Virus record (IMG/VR): IMGVR_UViG_2778261226_000007
DNA: 31,860 nucleotides
From: a virus
Taxonomy: Duplodnaviria > Heunggongvirae > Uroviricota > Caudoviricetes
Strand: one strand, 5' to 3'
Shown here: piece by piece, positions 765 through 26,455 of the stretch
Position numbering within the stretch: the stretch's first letter is position 1
Layout: each line of letters begins with the position of its first letter
Made by a program: the position numbers and the translations under genes
Notes under the pieces: generated by a model
Seen by the model: only the letters and a program-made list of their open reading frames with translations
Database searches by the model: none
What the model was told of the DNA's origin: nothing

Positions 765-3700
765 CCCGACGCGATGACTGCATAATTGACACAACCCTGC
801 TGTCGATCAGATCCACCAGTCCCCTGGCTGAGCGCGTATCTATCTCGCCATTGCTCCCTTGATTCTGAATGCTAATGTGATACACGGGAGAATAAACAAA
901 TCCACCGCCACCATTCACATTGCCAATGGCTCTGACCCCAAGAGAGCCGTCCGCTGCCCGTGTCAGTGGCATGATAGCTTCAGGCCCGGCCTCGCCCATC
1001 AGCCCGGCACCTTTCGCAAAAGCAAAATACGTCGGTGTATCCACAATAGTGTTACTGTAAGCACTCAGATTTGCCGATGTGTAAACACCACCTTTTGCGT
1101 TTGCCACCGCCCCCGAAATCCATCCGCCGACCGTACCAAGCCACCCTCCGGCACCGGAGAGTGACTTCAGTCCGTTAACAATGGCCGCATTCATCAGAAT
1201 TTTTGAAACTTCCCGGAGAACTGAACTCCCCCAGTTCCTCCACTCCACAACATTCCCGGCCAGTGCATCGGAAATATTTGATACCAGCCCGTCCATCGTG
1301 GAAACAACAGCATCTGCCGCCTGTGAAGCATAATCGGTGGCACTGTCTGCCCAGTTGGTCAGTCCCTCCTGGAGTCCGGCATTCCAGTTATTACGTAAAG
1401 CATCGGCCTTTGCATAATAATCCTGCTGATCGCTGAGACGCTCTTCCAGATATTTTTTATTCAGTTCTTTCTCCTGTTTCCACAGGGCTTCTTCAATTTC
1501 TCCGGCCTGATACTGTCTCAGCAGCTCGTTATTTTTCTGCTCAAACTCATGCCGGATACTCCACATTTCCTGGAGTCGTTCACGCATCCGTGAGCCTTCA
1601 CCATATCCCAGCAACTGCGCGTCGTCAGATGCCCGGGCACTGGCATTACTGTCCGCCAGACTGCTTTCATACGCGGCAAGCTGCTCACGAATCTTTTTCT
1701 GGTCGATGAGTGCTGCATTCTGCAAAAGCGTTTTTTTCTGCGCTTCTGACAGGGTTGATAATTCGCCCTGACTGACCTGATATTTCATCTTAGCCAGTTC
1801 AGTATTCTGCCCTGCCAGTGCTATCTGTTCTTTTTGCTGTTTAATCAGCCGTTTATAAATATCTTCTGTTTTTTCCGCTTCGGTCTTTTTATGCGCTTTG
1901 GGTTTATTTGCCTGGTTATTTCGCCAGGCATCCAGTGAGTTATTGATATAATTCTGTCTGGCTGTCCGATACGCCTCTCCCACAAAGCCGAGATCATCCG
2001 CAGCATAGCCCAGTCGGGCACGCTCACGCGCTTCCCCCTTAAGGCGGGACAGAGCCAGTTCGCGCTTGCTGTTATTCAGTGCGGTCTGCTGTTTATCATC
2101 CAGAGTTGCCTGTGGTAGCCGTAACGGTACATTCACCAGCCCCTGTCGCTGCTGAAGTAATTCATTACCAAGCCCGAGAAGGCGATTAAACTCGGTATGC
2201 TTCCCATTCATGATCAACAGGGACTGATACGCTTTGTTTTGTTCCGCTGCCTGTTGACGGATCAACGCCACTCGTCGCTCCTCCAGCCCGGCAAGCACAT
2301 CCTGAATGGATTGCGCTTTGCCCTGCATTTGTGTGAGACGGGACTGTTCAACTGCCAGTTGATTTGTTGCTTCTGCAAGCCCTTTAAGGATGATTTCAGC
2401 ACCAGAACCACTCTGCGAACTTTCATCAAGCCAACGTTGATAATCAGCAATTTGATTTTTCAGTCCGCGAATTTTTCCTTCCTGTTCGTTAATCAGGCGA
2501 TTTTGTTCCTCCAGTGCCTGCCGCGTCTTTTCCTCATTATCTGACGCTTCAGGAAGCGACATTGCCGACGTTTTCTGACGAATTTCGTCGATTGTTGCGG
2601 CATACTGGCGTGCAGATTCTCTGGCCTGCTCCTGATTCTGATACATCGTGTACCAGGCCGTCGCCCCCAGCATGACGAGTCCCGGCACACCACCAACCAG
2701 CCCCAGCGCACCACTTAATAAACGACTCCCCACTGACGTGACAGTATTCAGCGTTGTCTGTGCTGCTGTTCTGGCCGCAATATTACGGGTAAGTGATGCC
2801 TGGGCAGCAGCCAGTTTCGCTTCTGCGGCTGCCTGTCTTTCAGTACCACGGGTAGCCGCGACCGCCTGTTGCGCACGATAAACCGCCGCACGCGCCCTGG
2901 CGGTTGCTATCTGCGTCCCCCGGAGCTGCGCTTCCGCAAGAGCTACTTCGTTTCTGGCTGCAGTAATTAATCCGGCAGTTGCAGATCCAGCAGAAGATGC
3001 CATATTGCCAAAATATCGGGCTACCCCGACGGCAACCAGAGCACCGGCAGCGGTTGCCACAGTGTCAATATTGCCTGCAATACCATTCAGCACACCGGAG
3101 AGCGTCTTCGTCACTCCGCTTGCTTCGTTCGCACCACCAACCCAGGCCATAAAGGCGTTTTCAACTTTGGTTGCAGAGGATGAAACCGTATCAGGCATTG
3201 CTGCATATTCATCACGCAACGCCCCAAGCTGACTAATCAGTGCAGGAACAACCTTATCGGCGGTCAACTTTCCGTTATCCGCCATGGCCTTCAGATCCTT
3301 ACGGGCAACACCCATTCCCGCAGCCAGCGCACGAATAACACGATCGCCGTTCTCATTCACAGAGTTAAATTCTTCACCGCGCAGCACTCCCTGCGCCAGT
3401 GCCTGACTGAACTGCGTGATCACCGAACTGGCTTCTGCTGCACTGGCACCGGATAATTTCAGGCCCGTGGAGATAGCCTCGGTGACTTTCAGTACCTCCT
3501 CAGAACTGTAGCCATACTCCCGCATGGAAGCTGCAGAGCGGGCAAAAAGGCTGGCGTTATCAGAAAACGCCGTTCCCGTTCTCTGGCTGATTGCCATTAA
3601 TTCACGTTGTGATACCTGAAAATCATCAGTGGACTGTGAGGCCTGCTTCAGACGGGCATTTACTGAATTCCACTCATCGGCGAGAGAAATAAGATGACCG

Positions 3701-7340: not shown

Positions 7341-8564
7341 TTACGCAGCGGCTTTCTGGCGGGTTGCAGCACCGATCTTCATCAGCTTAATCGCCTGAGA
7401 ATCCACCAGCATACCGCCGGTTCGTTTGGTTGTATAAAAGCCCACAAACGGTTTGTTGGTGTAAGGATCGCGCAGGATGCGGGTGCCGATACGATCAACG
7501 ATGGTATAGCCGCGTTTGAAGTTACCAAACGCAATAGCTTTTGCATCGGCAGCAATATCCGGCATCTGCTCATTCTCAACGATGCCATACCCCGCCAGTG
7601 AAGAAGGCTGACCCAGCTCAATGCCCGGACGCCACAGATAATTTCCGTCGTTATCCTTCAGCAGGCGAATGGCAAACAGGCTGCTGTTATTCATCATGAA
7701 CTTCGCGCCGCTGCGATGCGCCTTGCGCAGGGTGTAAATCAGTTTAATGATCGCATCGGCAGTCACGCCAGAAGCCGCACCGGAAGCGATGTGCTGAAGT
7801 TTGCCAAACGCACGGGTCTTGTCATCTTCATCGGTGGACTCATAAGCCAGAAAACCTTTTGGTTTTTTGCTGCCGTCGCCACTGGTAAAGGCAATTTCTT
7901 CCTGTTCGGCAAATTCCAGCGCCAGCTCACTGTTGATCCAGTCTTCCACATTGAAGAAAGCGTCATCGAGCATTTTCTGGGTGGCCTGCGGGTTGCCGTA
8001 GATTTCCCCCATAAAGGGTTCAATCAGCCCCAGTTTTGAGGTGGCGGTTTCCGGACGTGCATCCGTTTCCCCCACCCATCCGGACGTTGTGCCGCCCAGA
8101 TTCACCAGTTTTTTATAATCCGAGCCCCCGAGGGTGATCACAGTGGCTTCCTGGCGCATCACCACCTCATCTTTCAGTAGCGTCAGAATGGTGCGATCCA
8201 GTTCTTCCGGAATGGCATAACCGCCATCTTCATCATTGCCCACCTGCAGCGCCTTACGCTCCAGCTCACGCAGGCCGTCTTCACGCCCCTTGCGCATAAA
8301 TCCGATAAACGCTTCTTTGTGTTCACTGGCAACTTTATTTTGCGTGCCGCCTGCCGGACGCTTGATGTCTGCCAGCTCTTTTTCCAGGTCGCTTTTCAGG
8401 TTCTCCAGCTCGCTGATTTGCCCGTTCAGGCTTTCCACCTGTTCGGCCAGCTTGCCTTTTTCCTGTTCGATCGCGTCAATGCGCTTGTCGTTTTTTGCCT
8501 TAAAATCGTCAAACTTCTGCTGCAGCTCCTGCGCGACCTGCTCCACATCTTTAATGTCAGCCAT
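7341..8564 (-). CDS. Major capsid protein, HK97 family, with N-terminal delta (scaffold) domain
   Basis: 407 aa. The N-terminal ~100 aa is a coiled coil (QELQQKFDDFKAKNDKRIDAIEQEKGKLAEQVESL...) followed by an HK97-fold body, directly after the prohead protease gene. Confidence 0.9.
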   Translation of the reverse strand: MADIKDVEQVAQELQQKFDDFKAKNDKRIDAIEQEKGKLAEQVESLNGQISELENLKSDLEKELADIKRPAGGTQNKVASEHKEAFIGFMRKGREDGLRELERKALQVGNDEDGGYAIPEELDRTILTLLKDEVVMRQEATVITLGGSDYKKLVNLGGTTSGWVGETDARPETATSKLGLIEPFMGEIYGNPQATQKMLDDAFFNVEDWINSELALEFAEQEEIAFTSGDGSKKPKGFLAYESTDEDDKTRAFGKLQHIASGAASGVTADAIIKLIYTLRKAHRSGAKFMMNNSSLFAIRLLKDNDGNYLWRPGIELGQPSSLAGYGIVENEQMPDIAADAKAIAFGNFKRGYTIVDRIGTRILRDPYTNKPFVGFYTTKRTGGMLVDSQAIKLMKIGAATRQKAAA

Positions 8565-8578
8565 TATTTTTCTCCTGG

Positions 8579-9229
8579 TTAAAATTTAAGATTTTTCAGT
8601 GCATTCAGTGCGGCATCCACATCCTCAGCATCACGCAGGGATAAAGCGCCATATCCCCCGGCCATGAATGCTTTGGCCTGGGTTCGCGAGAGTCCAACAT
8701 CGCGCAGGACTCGCTCAATAATTTTCTGATCAGGGATCTCCCCACGCGCCAGCGCATTTTTCACATCGCTGATGCGTGCCTCATCATTGGAAGGAAACGT
8801 CACCAGACTGACCTCCCACAAGTCGATCTCTTTCAGCAGGAATACCCCTTTTTCACGGTCGTACTCCCAGTCTTTCAGGATGTAGCCAATAGAAAGGCCG
8901 GTTAAAGAACCGGCCTTCATATGGGCATGTGCACGTTTTGCCAGGGGATCATCATCAACGAGTAATCGCCCCCTGACATAAAGCCCGACATCATCTTCTT
9001 TCATTTCGGTGTACACACCGATGGGCTCATCCATGCGGTGCTGCCAGAGCAACGCAGGCAGCGCCTTTTTTTCGCTCCATTTCTGGAGTGTTGTGGTAAA
9101 GGCACCGGGGACCACCACATCATCGTGGCTGTCCTTAACACCAAAAACAGAACCGTAACCTTCAAATTCCCCGGAATCACTGACGGATTTCAGGTTCAGC
9201 GGTATATCAAGACGCTGTTTTGTCTGCAT
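8579..9229 (-). CDS. Prohead protease (HK97 gp4-like)
   Basis: Located between the portal and capsid genes. Start taken at MQTKQ, which has an AAGGAG RBS; the ORF-track start at 9259 is less likely. Confidence 0.8.
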   Translation of the reverse strand: MQTKQRLDIPLNLKSVSDSGEFEGYGSVFGVKDSHDDVVVPGAFTTTLQKWSEKKALPALLWQHRMDEPIGVYTEMKEDDVGLYVRGRLLVDDDPLAKRAHAHMKAGSLTGLSIGYILKDWEYDREKGVFLLKEIDLWEVSLVTFPSNDEARISDVKNALARGEIPDQKIIERVLRDVGLSRTQAKAFMAGGYGALSLRDAEDVDAALNALKNLKF

Positions 9230-10448
9230 CTCCACTCTCCTTTTTCTTACCGTTGTCATCGCCAGCAGAGGGACTGGTGGTCATGTTCATCGGTGTCAGA
9301 TACACATCACCACCCGGTCTGGGATTCATATCTTCCAGATCACGGCAGTCATTAGGGGAATAAATCCCCCAGTTGATCCCCGTGGCATACGCTTCAAAGC
9401 GGGATTTCATGTCGCCACGCAACAATGCTCCGGCATTAAATTTGGCGTAAAACTTCCCCTGCTTGCTCTCCCTGACCAGCCCTGTATTGATCCGTTGCTC
9501 AATACGGGTCAGATACGGCACAAGGGAATAGTTAATGAAACCAAGCCCCAGCTCTTCAATATTGTTGAAGGTGGCGCGATCGGTGTTCTGCACCATATGC
9601 AGCGGCACGCGGAACAGGCGACAGATTTCTTCCAGCTGAAACTTACGGGTTTCCAGGAACTGGCTGTCCTCGGCATTCAGTGCCACCGTTTTCCAGTCCA
9701 GCCCCATTTCCAGAATCATCGGACGATGAGAATTTCCCAGCCCGACATGCCGTTCCTCAAAATCCTTTTTGATACGCGCATAAGCCTGATCAGAAAGTTG
9801 TTGATCCGTACGCAACACACCGGATGTCACTGCACCGTTGCCAAACAACCTGGCACCGTGCTCCTCGGTTGCCGCTGCCAGTGAAATGGCCTCACGCGCA
9901 TACGCAATGGGATTCAGCCCGACCAGTCCGTCCAGCGTCAGAGTACGCACATGCCAGATTTCATCCTGAGTCAGCACATCCACAGAACCATCCGGAAATG
10001 TCACCTGATAAACCGGCTGCCACTGACAGTTCAGCTTCGGCTCCACACATCCCGGATCTATAGGAAGAAGCTCCACCACTTCTCCCAGCGCCTTCACCTT
10101 GTAAGCGTAAAAATTACCCCGCAGACACAGGCAGACGATAACCAGCTCCCAGAATTCCTGCGGTGTCATGTAGCCATTGGGTTTTGCCGAAATCAGCTTA
10201 TGCAGTCGTTCATCCACTGCCCGTGTTTTAAGAGTGCCGGTGATTTTGTAGAGGCTGCAGGGCAGCATACCAACAGACTCCGCCAGCACCCTGACGCAGG
10301 AATACACCGCCGTCAGCCGCATGGCCCGCTGACTGCTGATCCGCTTTCCGGTATAGGTGTCGTATGACAACCCAAGTTCTTCCGCAAGCATCCCGGGCGT
10401 TGTGACGGGGGTATTATTTTTACGTTGAAAAAGCCCCTGGAAAAACAT
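9207..10448 (-). CDS. Portal protein (HK97 family)
   Basis: 413-aa ORF downstream of the terminase large subunit with an acidic C-terminus (GDDNGKKKESGDADKTAS). Confidence 0.85.
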   Translation of the reverse strand: MFFQGLFQRKNNTPVTTPGMLAEELGLSYDTYTGKRISSQRAMRLTAVYSCVRVLAESVGMLPCSLYKITGTLKTRAVDERLHKLISAKPNGYMTPQEFWELVIVCLCLRGNFYAYKVKALGEVVELLPIDPGCVEPKLNCQWQPVYQVTFPDGSVDVLTQDEIWHVRTLTLDGLVGLNPIAYAREAISLAAATEEHGARLFGNGAVTSGVLRTDQQLSDQAYARIKKDFEERHVGLGNSHRPMILEMGLDWKTVALNAEDSQFLETRKFQLEEICRLFRVPLHMVQNTDRATFNNIEELGLGFINYSLVPYLTRIEQRINTGLVRESKQGKFYAKFNAGALLRGDMKSRFEAYATGINWGIYSPNDCRDLEDMNPRPGGDVYLTPMNMTTSPSAGDDNGKKKESGDADKTAS

Positions 10449-17420: not shown

Positions 17421-17909
17421 TTAAAACCGTTCCAGAGTGCATACCATCGCATCGGCGGGTAGTTTTTCCGTGAAGTCGACCTGACCGTGTTTATCGAAGT
17501 GGATCAGTAATGCGCATCCATCATTTTGGGTTGGGGTGTTTTGTGCTGCTGGTGGTTGTTTTTGGCTGAAATAACAGTCTTCCAGTTTTTCGAACACTTC
17601 CCACGCCTGATCGGTTTCCAGCATTTTGGCGTGACGGGCTGCTCCGCGTTCTGTCCAGAGGATGAGGTGCTTTGTACGCGGTGCAACTAAGTTACTTTGA
17701 GTAACCTTGTTCTTAAATTCCCGCAACTCAGCCCCTTCCAATTTGAAGTAGTGTTTCCCACAAACAAAACGCTCGGCATTGCGTGTATAGTTCACTTTGA
17801 TGTTATTAGTTTCGGTGCCATAAAGTTGTGCCAAAAGCTCGGTAGTAATGACAGGGATTTGGTTATGGGTGATCGGGGAAAGAGTTTCAACTGAGATTTG
17901 AATAGCCAT
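17421..17909 (-). CDS. ORF6N-domain protein (antirepressor-like)
   Basis: N-terminal block (...NYTRNAERFVCGKHYFKLEG...LILWTERGAARHAKML...) is clearly paralogous to the N-terminus of the 24402..25256 protein. Confidence 0.7.
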   Translation of the reverse strand: MAIQISVETLSPITHNQIPVITTELLAQLYGTETNNIKVNYTRNAERFVCGKHYFKLEGAELREFKNKVTQSNLVAPRTKHLILWTERGAARHAKMLETDQAWEVFEKLEDCYFSQKQPPAAQNTPTQNDGCALLIHFDKHGQVDFTEKLPADAMVCTLERF

Positions 17910-18182
17910 AGGATGATCCTTTTTCTATGTGAATCATCACCACTGCTGACGCCAATCAGTATGGTGGTGAACTGTGCAGGGTTGGCGTAACCGGGAAAAA
18001 GGAACCGGCGCGGATCGCTCCGCCCCCACACAGCCCACCATTGAGATGTGACAGTGCAAACGACAATAAAAAAGACGCTGGCGCGTCTGTTGTCGCCTTT
18101 TTCATCCGGGACGCCAATCCCGACGCCAGATTTTGCTGGCGCGTGAGGAATATAGCCCCGGACAATGTGTCTGGTCAAGCTC
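17910..18182 (-). promoter_or_regulatory. Leader module C: promoter, short terminated transcript and structured region upstream of the ORF6N gene, directly after Q
   Basis: Minus strand has TTGACC (18178-18173), an 18-nt spacer and TATATT (18154-18149); a hairpin plus U6 (gacgcgccagcgtcTTTTTT, 18066-18087); and a GCGA tetraloop hairpin (18010-18023). Homologous at nucleotide level to modules A and B. Confidence 0.55.
18067..18141 (-). ncRNA. Candidate short leader RNA C (~75 nt, promoter to intrinsic terminator)
   Basis: Inferred from the promoter and terminator positions; predicted internal hairpins (gccag/cuggc, cggga/ucccg). Start and end are approximate. Confidence 0.35.
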
Positions 18183-18578
18183 CTACATGATTCGTTCTAC
18201 GTATCTGTCCATCTCCAGTCGGATATCAAGCATCATCAACATGCCATCAATAACCCCTTCCGCTTTCTGCAGGCGCTTGCCAATACAGGTATCCGAACAC
18301 CCATGCTTTCGTGCCAACCCCATAAAAGTCATTCCACCTACGTAATAATCCACCAACAAATCGTGCAAATCCTGATTTTTCTTGTTCAACCGGGCCATAC
18401 AGCCACAAATTATCATTGCATCATCATCAGAACACTGAGGGCGTGATTTCACTTTCGGCGGGATTAATCCTTTAAAACCAGCAGCGATTGACGCCCATGA
18501 CACATCTTCGTGATTGTTCGCAGCCCATGATCCCCACCGCTCCATAACCTGCTGAATATCACGCACCATCGTTATCAC
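18183..18578 (-). CDS. Late-gene antitermination protein Q family
   Basis: 131 aa, Cys-containing, in the lambdoid position after RusA and before the late region. Assignment by recalled similarity to Q-family proteins. Confidence 0.65.
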
Positions 18579-18933
18579 CTGTAATTTCGTAAATCTTCAC
18601 GCCCAACCGCCCACCAGGAACAGGCAGTCCGCGCACAATATTGATTTCATCAAACTGCTCGTCGTCTATAAGTAGTCCGGCATGCGTCAGCGCATCCAGT
18701 GGTGCTTTCAGAATATTGTCCAGGTCACGACGGCGCTTATCCGGCGGCTCTGCAATAATTTTTATTGCCAGCCTTCCGGACAGATTTAATTTCAGTCGCT
18801 GCTGGCGAACAATAAGCGCCACATCCCGGCGATAACGCTCCCCTGCTTTTGATACAAAATATGTGCTGCCACGACGACGCCAGTAGGTGTTCACCGTCGG
18901 TGGGTAAGGTAAAACACACTCTAAGCGCATCAA
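18559..18933 (-). CDS. rusA: RusA-family Holliday junction resolvase
   Basis: [10 protein letters not shown]...[29 protein letters not shown] matches the conserved RusA core (catalytic Asp cluster). Confidence 0.85.
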
Positions 18934-19172
18934 CGCAGTACCCCCTGCACCAATTTTTCAAATTTTCCAACTTTTGTTTCCAGCTCTGCCACACAATCCA
19001 CCAGCTCATCCACCGCTTTTTGTGCGCGGTGTTTTGCCTGCATCAGTTCTCTGAGCGCGGGTACCATATCCCGACGAATGGCATCTTTTGTTACGCCTGT
19101 CTTTTCCAGTTGTTCCGCCTGTCGTAACATTTCCTGTGCCTGTTTACGTAATTGTTCAGGCGTAAAAGTCAT
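18930..19172 (-). CDS. Hypothetical small coiled-coil protein
   Basis: Start taken at MTFTPEQL; the ORF-track start is a TTG. Lies between the helicase and RusA genes. Confidence 0.4.
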   Translation of the reverse strand: MTFTPEQLRKQAQEMLRQAEQLEKTGVTKDAIRRDMVPALRELMQAKHRAQKAVDELVDCVAELETKVGKFEKLVQGVLR

Positions 19173-19183
19173 GGTCTGGTTGT

Positions 19184-20575
19184 TCAAAAGAAACGCTCCA
19201 TCTTACTGCTGTCGGTTCGCTTATTGCTGTATCTGCGCGGCTGGGGCTGCTGCATTGGGGTGGAAAGAATCTGTGCGCTTTCCTGGTCTACGGGCAGAAA
19301 ATGTCCGTTATAAAAACGCCGGTAAATCGTCCCCAGAGAACCGTTACGTTGTTTCGTGATATTGATTTCTGCAATGCCTCTGGCCTGCGTATCCGGGTTG
19401 TACACTTCATCCCTGTAAAGCATCAGAATGATGTCTGCATCCGCCTCTATTTCTCCGGAATTTTTCAGGTCTGAGTTCATAGGTCGTTTATTGGGTCTGG
19501 ACTCAACTCCACGGGAAAGTTGGCTCAGCGCAACCACCGGTAATCCGCCGGATTTTGCCAGGCCTTTAAGCCCTTTTGATATTTCCCCCACGGCAAGGTC
19601 ATGACGTCCTATGGTACGGGTTTTTATCAGCCCGAGATAATCAACCACCACCAGCGCCGTTTCCGGGTGTTTAATCAGATGGTGTTTCGTTGTTGCGCAT
19701 ATTTCATCAATGGTCAGGTTCGCCTGGTCCACCATCCAGATATTGCGTCCGGTCATCAGCTCCACCCCCTTAATGAAACGCGCCCAGTCTTCGTCACCAA
19801 AGTGAGAGACAGATTTCAGGCGCGATACAGGCATTCCTCCGGCAGCAGACACCATGCGTTCACCGATCTGAATGTTCGCCATTTCCATTGTGAACAGAAG
19901 AACACCATGCCCCTGCTCAGTCACCTTGTCGATGATATCCAGCGCCAGTTCGGTTTTGCCCATTGACGGACGAGCCGCAATAAATACCAGATCGCCGGGC
20001 TCCATGCCGCCTGTTTTTGCGTCCAGTTCATCAATACCGGTCATCAACGTTCTGGATTTTTCCAGTCCCTGATTCCGGCATTCAACACGGTCAACCACCT
20101 CCGGAAGCACATCATCAATATGTACCGGCTGAATAATGCCCTTTTCCGTCGACAATGAAGCCATCATGTTCTGCGCATCCTTCAGGACATCTTCAGCTGC
20201 TTCACAGGTATGCGCATCACGTAATTTCTGCAGCGCCTCATTCAGTGTTTTTTCTGCATCACGCAATGCAGCATTGCGCCGCAACGCTGCAACATAGTGC
20301 TCCAGTGAAGACTTCACCCAGGTTTTACGCCCGGTATCAGTAATCACCGGAGCAAGTTCCGGCATTTCATTACACAGCAGCACAGGATCAATCACACCTG
20401 AAACACGAGCCTGTCGGCAGATGCCTGTGTAGATATCCCTATACGCTCGTACAGAAAAAACGTCCGCTGGCAGTGTGGCCAGAATATCCATCACTTCATG
20501 ATCTGCCCCACGCAGAAAAAACGCGCCAATGACAGCGCCTTCCAGATCATCGTTACGCCATACTGGAGTGGTCAT
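19184..20575 (-). CDS. Replicative DNA helicase (DnaB-like)
   Basis: 463 aa with Walker A (ARPSMGKT) and the overall DnaB C-terminal RecA-like organisation. Confidence 0.85.
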   Translation of the reverse strand: MTTPVWRNDDLEGAVIGAFFLRGADHEVMDILATLPADVFSVRAYRDIYTGICRQARVSGVIDPVLLCNEMPELAPVITDTGRKTWVKSSLEHYVAALRRNAALRDAEKTLNEALQKLRDAHTCEAAEDVLKDAQNMMASLSTEKGIIQPVHIDDVLPEVVDRVECRNQGLEKSRTLMTGIDELDAKTGGMEPGDLVFIAARPSMGKTELALDIIDKVTEQGHGVLLFTMEMANIQIGERMVSAAGGMPVSRLKSVSHFGDEDWARFIKGVELMTGRNIWMVDQANLTIDEICATTKHHLIKHPETALVVVDYLGLIKTRTIGRHDLAVGEISKGLKGLAKSGGLPVVALSQLSRGVESRPNKRPMNSDLKNSGEIEADADIILMLYRDEVYNPDTQARGIAEINITKQRNGSLGTIYRRFYNGHFLPVDQESAQILSTPMQQPQPRRYSNKRTDSSKMERFF

Positions 20576-21459
20576 GCAGCCACACCTCCAATATGCGCAC
20601 GATAGCTGGGCCAGTTAAACGACAACCAGTTGCGTCCCCCGTCTGTGATCCTGTCGGCAATGCGGGGGCTGATGAACGCCCACAACTCTTCCGGTGAAAG
20701 GTTGCTGATCAGGATGGTGGGCAGGATGCTTTCGTACCGGGCATTGATAATTTCCTGCAAAATAGCCATTTCAGCCGCGCTGCCAAACTGAACGCCGACT
20801 TCGTCGATGATCAGCAAATCCAATGACGCATAATGCTCAATAACTTCATCCGCTGTTTTTTCGCTGTCATTCCGCCAGCAGTTTTTCACAGCACGGGTAA
20901 GGCGCATCACATCAGTAATCTCCACACTGGCCAGATGGTTACGGATGATGTGTTTTGCCATAGCCACAGCCAGATGATTTTTTCCGGTACCACAACTGCC
21001 TGTCAGAACAAGACTGGTACCGTTAGCCAGAACATCCTCCCAGCTCTCTGCATAGCGGCGGCAGGCAGCAAGATTTCTGGCTGCATCAGAGTTAATCTCC
21101 TGATAGTTTTCAAACTCACAGTCGCGAAACCTACAGGCAACACCAGCATTCTCAATCAGCACATCAGCTTTCATTGCAACCAGAGTCCGATGTGTCACAT
21201 CCATTTCATCCACCAGACACTCCGGACAGCGGGAAATTTTTGAGACAGCGCCCCCCTGCCGATCATCCCACACCAGTATATGCGTACGATATTTACCGTG
21301 TTTTTCGCAGCATCCAACCCCTTCAGATTCCCGGCAGGCGCGGTAAGGCCATGGCTTTTCGCCATTCTGAGCAAATGCAATCTCTGCCCGTAACTCATCC
21401 ATTCGCGCCTGTAGTCTTGTTTGTTTCTCACGTTGGTTAATCGTCATCATCGCTGTCAC
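20572..21459 (-). CDS. DnaC/IstB-like AAA+ helicase loader with N-terminal Cys-rich region
   Basis: Walker A GSCGTGKNHLA and Walker B LLIIDEVG; N-terminal Cys cluster; start overlaps the upstream gene's stop. Confidence 0.75.
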   Translation of the reverse strand: MTAMMTINQREKQTRLQARMDELRAEIAFAQNGEKPWPYRACRESEGVGCCEKHGKYRTHILVWDDRQGGAVSKISRCPECLVDEMDVTHRTLVAMKADVLIENAGVACRFRDCEFENYQEINSDAARNLAACRRYAESWEDVLANGTSLVLTGSCGTGKNHLAVAMAKHIIRNHLASVEITDVMRLTRAVKNCWRNDSEKTADEVIEHYASLDLLIIDEVGVQFGSAAEMAILQEIINARYESILPTILISNLSPEELWAFISPRIADRITDGGRNWLSFNWPSYRAHIGGVAA

Positions 21460-21460
21460 C

Positions 21461-22453
21461 TCAGAATGTCAGTTTGTCACTGGATTTACCGAATTTGTCA
21501 GACATGGCTCCCAGGCCAGCCAGGACATCGACCTGTCGCTGTCGCCCACCTCCGGGAGCGGCTGGCTGTTGCCAAGATTCGTCAAAGTGCCGATCGGGGC
21601 CAAAGAACGTCGCAGCCTGCTTCACGAACTGTGTGCCGGTATTTCCTGTAGCACGTACCCAGGCTGCATACCGCCTTACGCCATTAAGCATGGTCTCCGG
21701 TTTTATTCCCTCCCTGATACGAGCTTTCCAGGCTTTGAAGGCTGCTGACTTGGAATTACCACCAGCACGTTTGGGATATTCCTGCCAGGCCTGTTCAAAT
21801 TCCGGTGAATATTCCTGTCGGGCAGAACGCGCTGGTGCAGACGCGTCAGCGGATGCGCCAATAGTGTTTTTAGTCTCCGTTGTAATCTCTGTAGTAATCT
21901 CTGTATTTGTATCAACATTCGGCGTATCCCCTGTTCCGTTATGACGTTGGGGGGTGTTCCGTTTTAACGTAATAGCTGTATCGCTGATTGAGTTATTGCT
22001 GTTACTTTCTGGCGAAACAGAAGAAGGTGTGGTGATGGCAGCAATTGCCTGTGGGTTGATCCCGACAAACAAAATATTGCTGCATTTCACCCCGTCTAGC
22101 ATTTCCACCGTACGTAAATCCAGAGTAATAAACCCAGCATCACGAAGACGCTTCAGCGCATCTGCGGTTTCCCTTTTCCCAAAGCCAAACTGTTCAGCAA
22201 ACGCCTGATAGCTTCTTTGCAGCTTGTCACCCTGAAAACGCTTGCGATATCCCAGTAAAGCCCCGGTATGCTCATCCCTGACTTCTGTCGGGCGGTACCA
22301 GTAAACAATCTCTGAAAGCAGCGCAATGGCAGTCGCATCCGGACGACCACTTGGTAGCCGAATATGTTTCCACCAGTTCGCTGGTGTGACATTGCCAGAA
22401 ATATTGAGTTGGCCAATAGCCATAACTTCAGGTGTAGGAGCGTAACGGCTCAC
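21461..22453 (-). CDS. Replication initiation protein (O-like / replisome organiser)
   Basis: Immediately upstream of the loader and helicase genes. Contains an internal tandem repeat (TEITTEITTE) like the ori iterons inside lambda O. Confidence 0.6.
   Translation of the reverse strand: MSRYAPTPEVMAIGQLNISGNVTPANWWKHIRLPSGRPDATAIALLSEIVYWYRPTEVRDEHTGALLGYRKRFQGDKLQRSYQAFAEQFGFGKRETADALKRLRDAGFITLDLRTVEMLDGVKCSNILFVGINPQAIAAITTPSSVSPESNSNNSISDTAITLKRNTPQRHNGTGDTPNVDTNTEITTEITTETKNTIGASADASAPARSARQEYSPEFEQAWQEYPKRAGGNSKSAAFKAWKARIREGIKPETMLNGVRRYAAWVRATGNTGTQFVKQAATFFGPDRHFDESWQQPAAPGGGRQRQVDVLAGLGAMSDKFGKSSDKLTF
21882..21905. repeat. Exact 12-bp tandem direct repeat (gtaatctctgta x2), candidate origin iterons
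   Basis: Read directly: tgtaatctctgtagtaatctctgtatttgtatc inside the initiator gene, with partial copies adjacent. Confidence 0.45.
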
Positions 22454-22674
22454 ACGGCACCTCCCAGACGCTTAAACATTTTTCCAGACAGAAATACCGC
22501 CAGCGGGTAACTGATGGTGTAGCTACGCCCCTGTAGTTCGCACACGACTTTCTGGCTTTCAGCGTTGACTAGGCAACCCCGCAGAACGTGACCGTTGCTG
22601 GTGGCGAACCACTGCCCCACACGGGGGCAACGGTTGTATCGGTGATACAGGGAATTAACGATGCGGCGAATCAT
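22450..22674 (-). CDS. Hypothetical small Cys-containing protein
   Basis: 74-aa ORF whose first ~20 nt (GGAGGCGCACCCATGATTCGC) nearly duplicate the 5' end of leader module B. ATGA-coupled to the initiator gene. Confidence 0.4.
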   Translation of the reverse strand: MIRRIVNSLYHRYNRCPRVGQWFATSNGHVLRGCLVNAESQKVVCELQGRSYTISYPLAVFLSGKMFKRLGGAV

Positions 22675-23222
22675 GGGTGCGCCTCCTTGTCAGAACCATT
22701 AAGTCTGGAATCAACAAGTGCAGCGCCAAAAACAGCATCTCCTACACGGTCATACAGCTTGCTCGCCAGCGGAGATTCAACGGCCTTAAGCATGGGGTAA
22801 AGCTGGCTTTTCCAGATTTGATGGATTTCACGCAAATGCAGGTATACGCCTCTGGCGTTTCGTGCAACAGCTGACATATCAACCGCGTCAGCACCAGATA
22901 AATTCTTCTCCATCTGGTTAAAGGCGTTGATGTATGCCTCTTTGAACCTGGCTGCACGTTTGCCAGTGAAGCCCATGGCAAGAAACGCAAAACCGTCGCG
23001 GGTGATTTGGTAGCAGGGAAGTTTGCGGCCTGATGCGTCGGTGTATTCACTTAACACAAAATTGTGTTCAGTAAATTCAGCGGAACATTCGAGGTTTCGA
23101 ATTCTGTCTAAAACCCGCTCATGCCGTTTAGTAAAGTAATTAGAAACTGCAAGAGATGTGGTGACAACACGACCATTGATAATCGTGATTTCAGGGTGAG
23201 ATTGGGTTGGGAGAGTAGTCAT
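22671..23222 (-). CDS. Rha-family phage regulatory protein (copy B)
   Basis: Start taken at MTTLPTQ. The N-terminal region (...VSNYFTKRHERVLDRIRNL...YQITRDGFAFLAMGFTGKRAARFKEAYINAF) looks like a Rha domain. The ORF-track N-terminal extension is the leader. Confidence 0.65.
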   Translation of the reverse strand: MTTLPTQSHPEITIINGRVVTTSLAVSNYFTKRHERVLDRIRNLECSAEFTEHNFVLSEYTDASGRKLPCYQITRDGFAFLAMGFTGKRAARFKEAYINAFNQMEKNLSGADAVDMSAVARNARGVYLHLREIHQIWKSQLYPMLKAVESPLASKLYDRVGDAVFGAALVDSRLNGSDKEAHP

Positions 23223-23534
23223 GGTGACAGCCCCTATGTTGAATTCAATGAACTCACCACCAAGGCTTTCCACGACCATATAGGTGGTGAGACGTACAGG
23301 GGTGGAAATACCGGTCAACATAGAACCCGGCCCAACCGAAGTTGGCCCTGCACGCCCCACCATAATTTGGGCGTAACGATGCTCATGACACGAAAAAACC
23401 GCATGAGCGCGGTTGTGCTCTATATTGAATTTCGGGTTTCCACGCCCGGCCCCCGCTTTATAAGGTGCAGAGACAGTGTAACGTCCCAAAAGTGCAGAAT
23501 CAATATGTTGGCGAATCATGGGCGCACCTCCCAT
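23223..23534 (-). promoter_or_regulatory. Leader module B: promoter, short terminated transcript and structured region upstream of Rha copy B
   Basis: Minus strand has TTGATT (23503-23498), a 17-nt spacer and TACACT (23480-23475); a hairpin plus U6 (ccgcgctcatgcggTTTTTT, 23393-23412); and a UUCG-loop hairpin (23329-23347). Confidence 0.55.
23393..23468 (-). ncRNA. Candidate short leader RNA B
   Basis: Inferred from promoter and terminator positions; approximate ends. Confidence 0.35.
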
Positions 23535-23877
23535 TGATTACGACGGAAAACAGTGTGATTCAGGTTGGTTTCAGCCTCATGGAATGCTTCAATACAGCTC
23601 TCGTAGTACCGCATTGTGCGCAGACTTAACCCAAGCTGAAGCATCATCAGGCCATCAAGGGTGATGTAATAACCACGCAGGGAATCGCCATACACGTGGT
23701 AAGTACCCGGTATGAAATTACGGGAGAAGAATTCACGCGAGCAGTTCAGATACTCGATTTTGTCGACGATATTCTGGTGCATGCGCTTGAAGTGGCAGGC
23801 AACATGCAGGGAGAAAATAACAGCCTTACCGTTGACGATCTCAATTTTGAGGAATGGGGAAGTTGGGATCGTAGCCA
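23516..23877 (-). CDS. Rha-family phage regulatory protein (copy A)
   Basis: Start taken at MATIPTS. Contains KRMHQNIVDKIEYL...YYITLDGLMMLQLGL, resembling a Rha domain. Its stop is ATGA-overlapped with the start of leader B. Confidence 0.6.
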
Positions 23878-24192
23878 TGATGGCAGCCTCCGTATGCAAT
23901 GGATAACTTCCACCACCGGAAACGCCAATTTCGCTGGTGGTGAACTGAGCAGGGTTGGCGTAACCGGCGCATACGGAAACCGGCGCACCTTTCGGTGCCC
24001 CCACCCAGCCCACCATAATTTGGGTATAGCTGAGTTGTAGCAACAAAAAAGACGCTAACGCGCCAATTGTCGCCGTATGCAATTCCAGGACGCCAATCCC
24101 GGCACCCGCTTTATAAGGTGCTGGAACAGTGTAACGTCCCGAAATTGCAGAATCAATATGTTGGTTGCGGATCATTTTGTACCTACTCGCCG
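23878..24192 (-). promoter_or_regulatory. Leader module A: promoter, short terminated transcript and structured region upstream of Rha copy A
   Basis: Minus strand has TTGATT (24156-24151), a 17-nt spacer and TACACT (24133-24128); a hairpin plus U6 (24044-24064); and a GAAA tetraloop hairpin gcaccGAAAggtgc (23985-23998). Confidence 0.55.
24045..24120 (-). ncRNA. Candidate short leader RNA A
   Basis: Inferred from promoter and terminator positions; approximate ends. Confidence 0.35.
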
Positions 24193-24402
24193 TCAATCCG
24201 CGTTTTCGCGCTGATTCCAGTCATGAACAGCACGTTCTTTCGAATCAGGGATCTGGTTTGCGTTACAGCAAGTACATGCGACGTAATAACCATCATCGCC
24301 ATCCAGAAAATATTTCACCTCAATGAGTTGTACTTCCGGATTTCCGCAGAACGGGCAAGGTTTCAGATCGACATCACCAGTTACACACGTCTTGGTTTGC
24401 AT
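24193..24402 (-). CDS. Lar-family restriction alleviation protein (zinc ribbon)
   Basis: 69 aa with CPFCG...CTCC zinc-ribbon spacing typical of the Lar family found in Rac-type prophages. Confidence 0.65.
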   Translation of the reverse strand: MQTKTCVTGDVDLKPCPFCGNPEVQLIEVKYFLDGDDGYYVACTCCNANQIPDSKERAVHDWNQRENAD

Positions 24403-25765: not shown

Positions 25766-26455
25766 ATGAAGAACGTCAAAAACACGGAAAATCGAATAGC
25801 CGCGATGCTGAAAGCAAAAGGATGGACTCAGGCTCAACTGGCCCGCAAGTTAGGTGTGAGTGCGCAATCAGTGCAGTACTGGACAACAGGAAAGACATTT
25901 CCACGGAGTGATAAGCTTGCGCAGTTATCAGAGATTAGCGGTTATCCACAATCCTGGTTCTTAGGTGAAGACCCCTCACCGACCTTCTCCTCGCCAGAGA
26001 AACACCAGACAAGAACAGATAGCGTCGTGTTTAATGTCCTTGATGTTGAGTTCAGTTGCGGTGATGGAACTCATGTCCGTGGTGACTTGATAGATGTAGT
26101 GCGCTCAATAGAACTTGATCCTGAATATGCCCGACGTCTTGTTGGAAATCGGGCATTCAAAAATATAGAAATAGGTAACGCCAGAGGAGACAGTATGGCT
26201 CCCACAATCTCACCTGGCGACCTTCTTTTTCTCGATAAGACAGTAACTTATTTTGATGGAGATGGCATTTATGCATTTTGTTTTGATGGAGAATGCTACG
26301 TGAAAAGACTTCAAAAAATTGGAAGCAAAATCATGGTGTTATCTGATAACCCCAATTATCAACCATGGAGCATCGAAAAAGAGGGTTTAGCTCTGCTTTA
26401 TATCCAGTCTAAAGTGATCTCATCTGTACCATTCAATATAAACAGATTTGGTTAG
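25766..26455 (+). CDS. CI-type prophage repressor (HTH plus S24 LexA-like autopeptidase domain)
   Basis: N-terminal HTH (GWTQAQLARKLGVSAQSVQYW); C-terminal domain with the catalytic Ser in GDSMAP and Lys in YVKRL. Confidence 0.85.
   Translation: MKNVKNTENRIAAMLKAKGWTQAQLARKLGVSAQSVQYWTTGKTFPRSDKLAQLSEISGYPQSWFLGEDPSPTFSSPEKHQTRTDSVVFNVLDVEFSCGDGTHVRGDLIDVVRSIELDPEYARRLVGNRAFKNIEIGNARGDSMAPTISPGDLLFLDKTVTYFDGDGIYAFCFDGECYVKRLQKIGSKIMVLSDNPNYQPWSIEKEGLALLYIQSKVISSVPFNINRFG

Follow-up and report, generated by a model that had tools for sequence, protein, structure and literature searches.

The silencing of a regulator gene by a small RNA encoded in its own leader is a mechanism known in temperate phages since 1990 (P1), the 1990s (P4) and 2016 (Gifsy-1). 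Three copies of such a cassette are described here in IMGVR_UViG_2778261226_000007, a stretch of 31,860 nucleotides (the window, analysed over its whole length) from a lambdoid E. coli prophage whose closest relative is NZ_OU342919 (97.6% identity). The three modules, of around 240 nt each, lie on the minus strand (A, 18178-17907; B, 23503-23220; C, 24156-23876), and each is very probably an RNA immunity cassette of the P1/P4 type. The modules are of a known and widespread kind, with nothing new in their mechanism.

In P1 and P7, the immI region comprises the P1c4 promoter, a1 b1, c4, a2 b2, icd and ant1/2, which is the same order of parts as in the window. The C4 fold, the location of a1 in a hairpin loop and a terminator-like hairpin before C4 are common to both, and the loop sequences set the specificity, as in P1/P7 heteroimmunity. 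In the P1 annotation, a' forms the 3' internal loop and b' caps the second hairpin as its apical loop, a1/b1 lie upstream of c4 and a2/b2 downstream, and b2 adjoins the ribosome-binding site; the a1, b1, c4, a2 and b2 sites all map to the same places in the window modules. The P1 b2 lies over the Shine-Dalgarno of the small open reading frame (ORF) icd, to which ant is coupled, whereas b2 in the window lies over that of the ORF6N or Rha gene itself. Further, P1 is a plasmid prophage with one module and a C1 operator at its promoter, whereas the window prophage has three modules.

The P4 immunity region consists of PLE, seqA, the CI RNA and seqC; the Rfam C4 model matches the CI RNA with 74.9 bits, and the isrK model matches seqA with 60.8 bits. 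According to PMC10111431, the constitutive promoter, seqA, CI and seqC are placed inside a translated ORF, eta, of which kil is the 3' part. The same source states, after Forti 1999, that eta is translated only from an upstream promoter and that this translation prevents termination. Eta, 199 codons long with an MMM start, begins upstream of the internal promoter, next to where the gene before it stops. In alignment, the ATG of kil coincides with that of Rha in the window, just past b2, and the C4 AUG lies 138 nt upstream, in phase. Modules B and C share this nested layout of a long ORF through the leader and a short gene in phase, whereas A does not. P4 Kil (P4 record 8168-8365) matches the Icd-like NCBIfam model NF033153 (73 bits); P1 icd and P4 kil are thus homologues that share one slot past b2, which the Rha gene fills in the window. 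The downstream protein is an Icd-like Kil in P4 and a Rha-family regulator in the window; no BLASTP similarity was found between P4 Kil and the window Rha protein, and only about the first 12 residues are alike by eye. Unlike in P4, B and C form a tandem pair of modules whose addresses differ, and they precede the O/P-type replication genes in the early operon of a lambdoid prophage.

In Gifsy-1, the locus reads antQ-isrK-orf45(STnc1160)-anrP-isrJ, with STnc1160 as the counterpart of C4 (Hershko-Shalev 2016). It was reported that IsrK, acting in trans, raises the translation of anrP more than 100-fold and that STnc1160 is processed from a read-through transcript (PMC4825925). Activation of this kind is known for Gifsy-1 only. 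Module A and its gene share 72% DNA identity with isrK-anrP, with a homologous ORF6N antirepressor-like gene, and the Gifsy-1 order of Q, a 273-nt leader and the antirepressor recurs in module A, directly after Q. This Q-isrK-leader-antirepressor layout is seen in module A only; B and C follow other early genes. The Q genes belong to different families (PF06530 in the window, 82-like in Gifsy-1); unlike Gifsy-1, the window gave no match to isrJ in the Rfam scan, and the orf45 equivalent of module A has 34 codons and is not conserved among relatives. Many Shiga-toxin (Stx) phages also have 'anti-repressor Ant' loci that share 84% identity with module A and its gene. The sar/ant system of P22 is similar in that a small RNA blocks antirepressor translation; however, sar is a cis-encoded antisense RNA from the opposite strand, unrelated in sequence and structure to the window modules, and it has no Rfam match in the window.

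Three modules of the C4 and isrK families

A scan of the 31.9-kb window at the Rfam gathering thresholds (isrK RF01394, 50 bits; C4 RF01695, 45 bits; c4-a1b1 RF03163, 46.7 bits) gave exactly seven matches, all within the three modules. The isrK model is matched over its full length in A (79.4 bits), B (57.7 bits) and C (61.2 bits), and the C4 model over positions 1-87 of 87 in A (74.0 bits), B (82.4 bits) and C (80.7 bits); the seventh match is that of c4-a1b1 in A (52.2 bits, 18155-18103). The E-values of the six isrK and C4 matches range from 1e-10 to 1e-15. All three leaders are thus confirmed as modules of the C4/isrK family. A reading made earlier from the DNA letters (the sequence-only reading) had pointed, with membership left unconfirmed, to a resemblance to C4 and IsrK, which is borne out. 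In each module, a sigma70-like promoter is followed by an isrK-type RNA of around 77 nt that ends in an intrinsic terminator, and then by the C4 antisense RNA and the target leader:

Module A
18178-18149, minus strand: promoter TTGACC-18-TATATT, from the promoter scan (10/12 consensus matches)
18142-18068, minus strand: isrK-type RNA with a1, b1 and terminator plus U6
18088-18073, minus strand: isrK terminator (hairpin and U-run), from the terminator scan
18045-17960, minus strand: C4 RNA, tetraloop GCGA
17959-17907, minus strand: target leader with a2, GGUGAUG, b2 and ATG (17909-17907)
17421-17909, minus strand: ORF6N-domain antirepressor-like gene (Pfam PF10543, 77 bits)

Module B
23503-23475, minus strand: promoter TTGATT-17-TACACT, read by eye, conserved in alignments
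23468-23392, minus strand: isrK-type RNA with a1, b1 and terminator
23414-23397, minus strand: isrK terminator (hairpin and U-run), from the terminator scan
23367-23280, minus strand: C4 RNA, tetraloop UUCG
23279-23220, minus strand: target leader with a2, GGUGGUG, b2 and ATG (23222-23220)
22671-23222, minus strand: short Rha gene, nested in a long ORF

Module C
24156-24128, minus strand: promoter TTGATT-17-TACACT, read by eye, conserved in alignments
24121-24045, minus strand: isrK-type RNA with a1, b1 and terminator
24064-24051, minus strand: isrK terminator (hairpin and U-run), from the terminator scan
24020-23933, minus strand: C4 RNA, tetraloop GAAA
23932-23876, minus strand: target leader with a2, GGUGGUG, b2 and ATG (23878-23876)
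23516-23878, minus strand: short Rha gene, nested in a long ORF

The sequence-only reading had described three extended similar regions, each ahead of an ORF6N or Rha gene and each with a promoter, a hairpin with a U-run some 75 nt later and a tetraloop hairpin. These points stood up well. The leaders align over their full length with a mean column identity of 74%, and the terminator was found by the scan around 75 nt past the promoter in every module. The promoter of A begins 5 nt past the Q stop codon (18183). The tetraloop hairpins hold the same relative position with unlike stems, as seen both in the Rfam matches and in the single-sequence minimum-free-energy folds, which reproduce the C4 family structure for the three copies. 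The 3' end of C4, CACCACC, is conserved and is the only visible sign that bears on RNase P excision.

P1, P4 and the window modules also have a conserved loop in isrK hairpin 1, which reads GCAAAAUC or, in B and C, UUAUAAAG. This loop (A 18128-18136, B 23456-23462, C 24109-24115) is outside the a/b pairing.

Address loops and their targets

Each C4 RNA carries two recognition loops: a' is internal, and b' sits at the apex of the second hairpin. They match the decoy sites a1/b1 in the isrK part of the same module and the target sites a2/b2 just upstream of the downstream gene:

Module A, minus strand: loops a' ACGCCAA (17988-17982) and b' CCUUUUUC (18002-17995)
Module A, minus strand: decoys a1 18117-18111 (loop of isrK hairpin 2) and b1 18103-18096
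Module A, minus strand: targets a2 17955-17949 and b2 17925-17917, over the Shine-Dalgarno AAGGA
Module B, minus strand: loops a' UUUCCAC (23308-23302) and b' GUUCUAUGUUGA (23326-23315)
Module B, minus strand: decoys a1 23443-23437 and b1 23428-23417
Module B, minus strand: targets a2 23273-23267 and b2 23242-23232, over the Shine-Dalgarno GGGG
Module C, minus strand: loops a' ACGCCAA (23961-23955) and b' UUUCCGUAUGCG (23979-23968)
Module C, minus strand: decoys a1 24096-24090 and b1 24081-24073
Module C, minus strand: targets a2 23928-23922 and b2 23898-23887, over the Shine-Dalgarno GGAGG

The a1 site is the loop of isrK hairpin 2, and b1 is the single-stranded linker ahead of the terminator. 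Further downstream, a2 lies around 5-7 nt past C4, and b2, which includes the Shine-Dalgarno, is separated from the ATG by 7-9 nt. The b' sequence differs in all three copies, with b1 and b2 changed to match, while a' is common to A and C. At these conserved positions, the cognate complementary runs are 8-12 nt for b' (4-8 nt for non-cognate partners) and 7 nt for a', and for b' the matches within the three modules are between cognate partners only. In 2000 shuffles per module, none gave all four loop-target complementarities together; this result and the Rfam E-values exclude chance. Because the b' addresses differ in all three copies and a' is common to A and C, the copies are largely separate control channels.

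Covariation among relatives

Relatives were collected through the three downstream proteins, a route unbiased with respect to the leader. In the 240 viral contigs so fetched, nhmmer found 94 unique full-length modules, of which 93 could be parsed. Scans with an exact C4 pattern (GCCGG..CCGGT..CCANCCC..CACCACC) were dropped as a route to relatives, since they mostly gave chance matches: the pattern occurred at 2 loci in viral contigs and at 58 in genome contigs, where only about 8 were in Enterobacterales and nearly all were chance matches in G+C-rich actinobacteria.

The 93 modules hold 36 distinct (a', b') combinations, in which 13 or more b' alleles and 7 or more a' alleles are freely re-assorted. 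In each combination, a1, a2, b1 and b2 change to match the loops, at fixed positions. One representative per combination was aligned with P1 and P4. In this alignment, the loop-target cells are paired in 93-95% of cases, against 39-45% with slid partners, and the covariation score is 0.41 against 0.05-0.11. Double changes are seen in 5/6 pairs of a'-a1, in 5/5 plus 1/2 of a'-a2, in 8/9 of b'-b1 and in 8/12 of b'-b2. The four helices of C4 are paired at 99-100%, with double changes in all five pairs of the tetraloop hairpin and in 3/11 and 2/6 of the closing-stem helices; the stem of the second hairpin is almost invariant (1/5). The covariation supports both the C4 structure and the antisense target pairing, in line with the RNA element that the sequence-only reading had proposed from hairpins of differing sequence.

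When the whole leader was folded by RNAalifold with no structure given, isrK hairpin 1 and the tetraloop hairpin were recovered. Otherwise, a cis pairing of a1b1 with a'b' takes the place of isrK hairpin 2 and the terminator, and of the second hairpin and closing stem of C4. It also predicts another helix between the C4 3' strand UUCACCAC and the conserved GGUGGUG a few bases past a2 (17966-17973 with 17935-17942 in module A, equivalent sites in B and C; alignment columns 270-277 with 302-309). This helix shows covariation, two of its pairs having 11 double changes each, and appears to be an alternative structure akin to structures A and B of the Gifsy-1 study.

Reading frame of the leader and the Ash family

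The leaders of B and C are at the same time crossed by ORFs that run into the Rha genes, and all three can be translated in a frame that Pfam recognizes as Ash:

22671-23519, minus strand: eta-like long ORF of module B, ATG at 23519 with Shine-Dalgarno GGGAGG
23516-24175, minus strand: eta-like long ORF of module C, ATG at 24175, 54 nt upstream of the isrK start
17792-18178, minus strand: Ash-frame ORF of module A
23223-23534, minus strand: Ash-frame ORF of module B
23879-24196, minus strand: Ash-frame ORF of module C

In B, the ATG of the long ORF shares an ATGA with the stop codon of the Rha gene upstream. Across 74 unique Rha-type leaders, only 2 distinct stop positions fall in the phase of the Rha gene, against 29 and 36 in the other frames (binomial P ~1e-9), and 73 of the 74 have this frame open and in phase, as do B and C. 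These leaders are 249 or 252 nt long, and in all of them the AUG of C4, at -138 or -141, is in phase. Most of them have an ATG 54-57 nt upstream of the isrK start, in varied upstream contexts, while some variants start elsewhere in frame. This ATG is often preceded by a Shine-Dalgarno and overlaps the gene before it as ATGA. Module B differs from C by indels that are all multiples of three, a point absent from the sequence-only reading. The indels between A and C are of 1, 2, 3 and 7 nt, so the observation made earlier that not all are multiples of three was correct. In the ORF6N-type leaders, A included, the three frames have 27, 28 and 25 stop positions, the lengths are not multiples of three, and no conserved orf45-like ORF was found among the relatives. 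The Ash frame of A is out of phase with its ORF6N gene.

The open frame is not accompanied by selection at the amino-acid level: in the related leaders, neither a third-position excess nor a frame-specific identity was found. The third codon position takes 0.30-0.38 of the substitutions in the leaders, against 0.56-0.66 in three of the four adjacent Rha-type coding sequence (CDS) sets; the remaining set, of 3 sequences, has 0.38. Likewise, the amino-acid identity of the leaders is 0.742 in the supposed frame against 0.743 and 0.714 in the others, while that of the adjacent CDS is 0.891 in frame against 0.71. The leader frame in B and C is kept open by selection, in phase with Rha, with its amino-acid sequence unconstrained. 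The earlier statement that the long ORFs are not conserved proteins is therefore right as to the amino-acid sequence, but it misses the stop-free, in-phase frame of the Rha-type leaders in B and C. That same reading had set translation of the leaders as N-terminal extensions against an RNA element. This does not follow, as the same RNAs of P4 lie inside the translated eta ORF (PMC10111431); with the same nested arrangement in eta/kil, leader translation complements the RNA and does not refute it. For the same reason, translation through the leader in B and C is not put forward as a new observation.

The three leader translations pass the Pfam Ash threshold (PF10554, 26 bits) at 27.7, 30.9 and 53.5 bits, and PGAP labels such leaders 'ash family protein' or over-long Rha proteins. 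An Ash protein results when promoter, isrK, C4 and target leader are translated in frame. The founding member of Ash is the old 'cI' ORF of P4 (P4 record 8168-8584, 59.7 bits), which overlaps the CI RNA, the established immunity factor of P4. The Ash of Pfam and PGAP is a translated RNA leader.

Proposed mechanism and competing explanations

The working of the modules can be pictured after P1, P4 and Gifsy-1, from which processing, repression in trans, decoy action and translational override are carried over. The constitutive internal promoter would mostly yield a ~77-nt RNA stopped at the intrinsic terminator (IsrK; seqA in P4, a1b1 in P1). Read-through transcripts would contain C4, a stable RNA in P1 and P4, where RNase P excises it. 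Its a' and b' loops would then bind their targets a2 and b2 ahead of the downstream gene, and the pairing at b2, by covering the Shine-Dalgarno, would block ORF6N or Rha translation; the untranslated transcript would be terminated prematurely, as in P1 and P4. The isrK decoys a1/b1 may hold or titrate C4 and so release the gene, as shown for IsrK in Gifsy-1. Modules B and C belong to the early operon, and each is enclosed by an eta-like ORF whose start precedes the internal promoter. On transcripts from the upstream early promoter, ribosomes would cross the B and C leaders, and the terminator and C4 might, by the P4 precedent, be overridden.

Three other explanations deserve weighing against an RNA immunity cassette. 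It is conceivable, at a low probability, that the modules are leader attenuators which switch structures in cis only, with no stable trans-acting C4 or IsrK. The RNAalifold preference for the cis a1b1:a'b' pairing and the covarying helix between the C4 3' strand and GGUGGUG speak for this, and Weinberg et al. remark that C4 may sometimes act in cis. Action in trans has nevertheless been shown experimentally for C4 of P1/P7, CI of P4 and IsrK of Gifsy-1; the conserved 3' CACCACC and a closing stem that resembles that of tRNA are consistent with processing to a stable RNA, and action in cis does not exclude action in trans.

Less credit still is due to a real Ash domain (PF10554) fused N-terminally to Rha, with the RNA structures incidental, or to decaying relics of duplication that have no current function. 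The Ash scores over threshold in all three leaders, the ash/Rha fusion CDS called by PGAP and the in-phase frame of 73 of the 74 Rha-type leaders would suit a fused domain. Against it, substitutions are even over the codon positions, unlike in three of the four adjacent CDS sets, identity is no higher in the coding frame than in the others, and the frame of A is out of phase with its gene; moreover, the stems co-vary as RNA while the peptide changes completely, and the founding P4 'cI' ORF overlaps the CI RNA. As for relics, tandem arrays do arise by duplication, the closest relative has a fourth copy, and one related leader (U025) is frameshifted. Yet each of the three modules has kept every part intact, from promoter and terminator through the C4 helices to the two target pairs and the overlap with the Shine-Dalgarno, and changes of loops and targets are compensated three ways.

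A P1/P4-type RNA immunity cassette thus stays the preferred explanation of each module, and several points weigh against it. The promoters of B and C match the consensus at only 8/12 positions and fall under the scan threshold; the promoters noticed by the sequence-only reading were found by scan in A and by eye in these two. The c4-a1b1 model reaches its gathering threshold in A only, B and C being unlisted there, though both still have a1/b1 sites that co-vary with a'/b'. The override of termination by translation in lambdoid Rha modules is an analogy with P4. The Rha and ORF6N proteins owe the term antirepressor only to the names of their families. Translation of orf45 is required in the Gifsy-1 model; ORF6N-type leaders have no conserved counterpart of it, their ORFs being of 14-64 codons with variable ends. 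Lastly, A and C have the same a', so some cross-talk between them is possible.

A possible late promoter after Q

It can tentatively be proposed that the isrK promoter found after Q, in module A and in Gifsy-1, is the Q-dependent late promoter pR', and that IsrK is a terminated late leader, the counterpart of lambda 6S; this is on balance rather doubtful. The promoter may double as pR' because it lies 5 nt past the Q stop codon, because a Q gene, from either of two unrelated families, precedes 29 of the 34 related ORF6N-type modules, and because no other sigma70-like promoter was found between Q and the lysis/late genes in the scan of the window. Several terminators do lie between Q and the late genes (among them 17345-17324, 16429-16410 and 16314-16299). 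Deletion of PisrK abolished phage production in Gifsy-1 (PMC4825925). Antitermination by Q would then turn IsrK synthesis into read-through, to give C4, the antirepressor gene and the late genes. If true, this would tie late transcription to the balance of IsrK and C4.

Neighbouring genes

The modules are set among the following genes of the prophage:

25766-26455, plus strand: CI-type repressor gene, divergent
25632-25333, minus strand: Cro-like gene
25256-24402, minus strand: ORF6N+KilAC gene
24402-24193, minus strand: Lar gene (restriction alleviation)
down to 23516, minus strand: module C and its Rha gene
down to 22671, minus strand: module B and its Rha gene
22453-19184, minus strand: replication genes (O/P-type)
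18933-18559, minus strand: RusA gene
18578-18183, minus strand: antiterminator Q gene (Pfam PF06530, 175 bits), directly upstream of module A
17345-17324, minus strand: terminator 3' of the ORF6N gene of module A
17257-16454, minus strand: AraC-family gene
beyond 16454, downstream, minus strand: lysis and structural genes

The ORF6N+KilAC gene, directly 3' of the cro-like gene, is a fourth antirepressor-like gene and is without a C4/IsrK module; the Lar gene comes after it. An AraC-family regulator gene is found between the antirepressor gene of module A and the lysis genes. Since Stx phages carry toxin genes at that position, it is probably a moron in their slot. A repeated junction, GGAGGYGCRCCCATGATTCGCC, occurs at 22665-22686 and 23510-23531 (91% identical between the sites), where the stop codon of each Rha gene overlaps a start codon as ATGA. 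The junction is likely a module boundary or recombination joint as well as a site of translational coupling.

Distribution and re-assortment

The module C leader matches 3096 of 5426 complete E. coli genomes (57%), at a median of 2 and a maximum of 7 places, and 281 phage records, mostly of Stx phages. Tandem arrays of 2-3 Rha-type modules were seen at 34 of 189 loci. NZ_OU342919 itself has four modules, three of them tandem and Rha-type, at 8421-9975 and 3108-3343. Its extra copy joins the b' of module B to the a' of module C, which shows that the two address loops re-assort. In 36 co-resident module pairs, 3 had the same b', 6 the same a' and 1 both, so that 35 of the 36 differ in at least one loop. 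Selection for unlike addresses within one prophage was considered and dropped, as the sharing is near random expectation (0.13 and 0.16 per pair) and gives no ground to claim extra avoidance.

Significance for prophage annotation and immunity

With the mechanism already known, what the three modules add is the correction of the Ash annotation, a combinatorial catalogue of addresses and the idea of a late promoter after Q. Transcribed regulators are at present mislabelled as 'ash family protein' or as over-long Rha, and recognition of C4 and IsrK would give the correct gene starts. A 2022 study of the regulatory regions of Stx phages still treated Ash as a protein domain of unknown function. 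The two-part a'/b' address predicts which co-resident prophages can silence each other's regulator genes. It could thereby help to explain the cross-immunity and cross-induction of co-resident prophages, including the Shiga-toxin phages.

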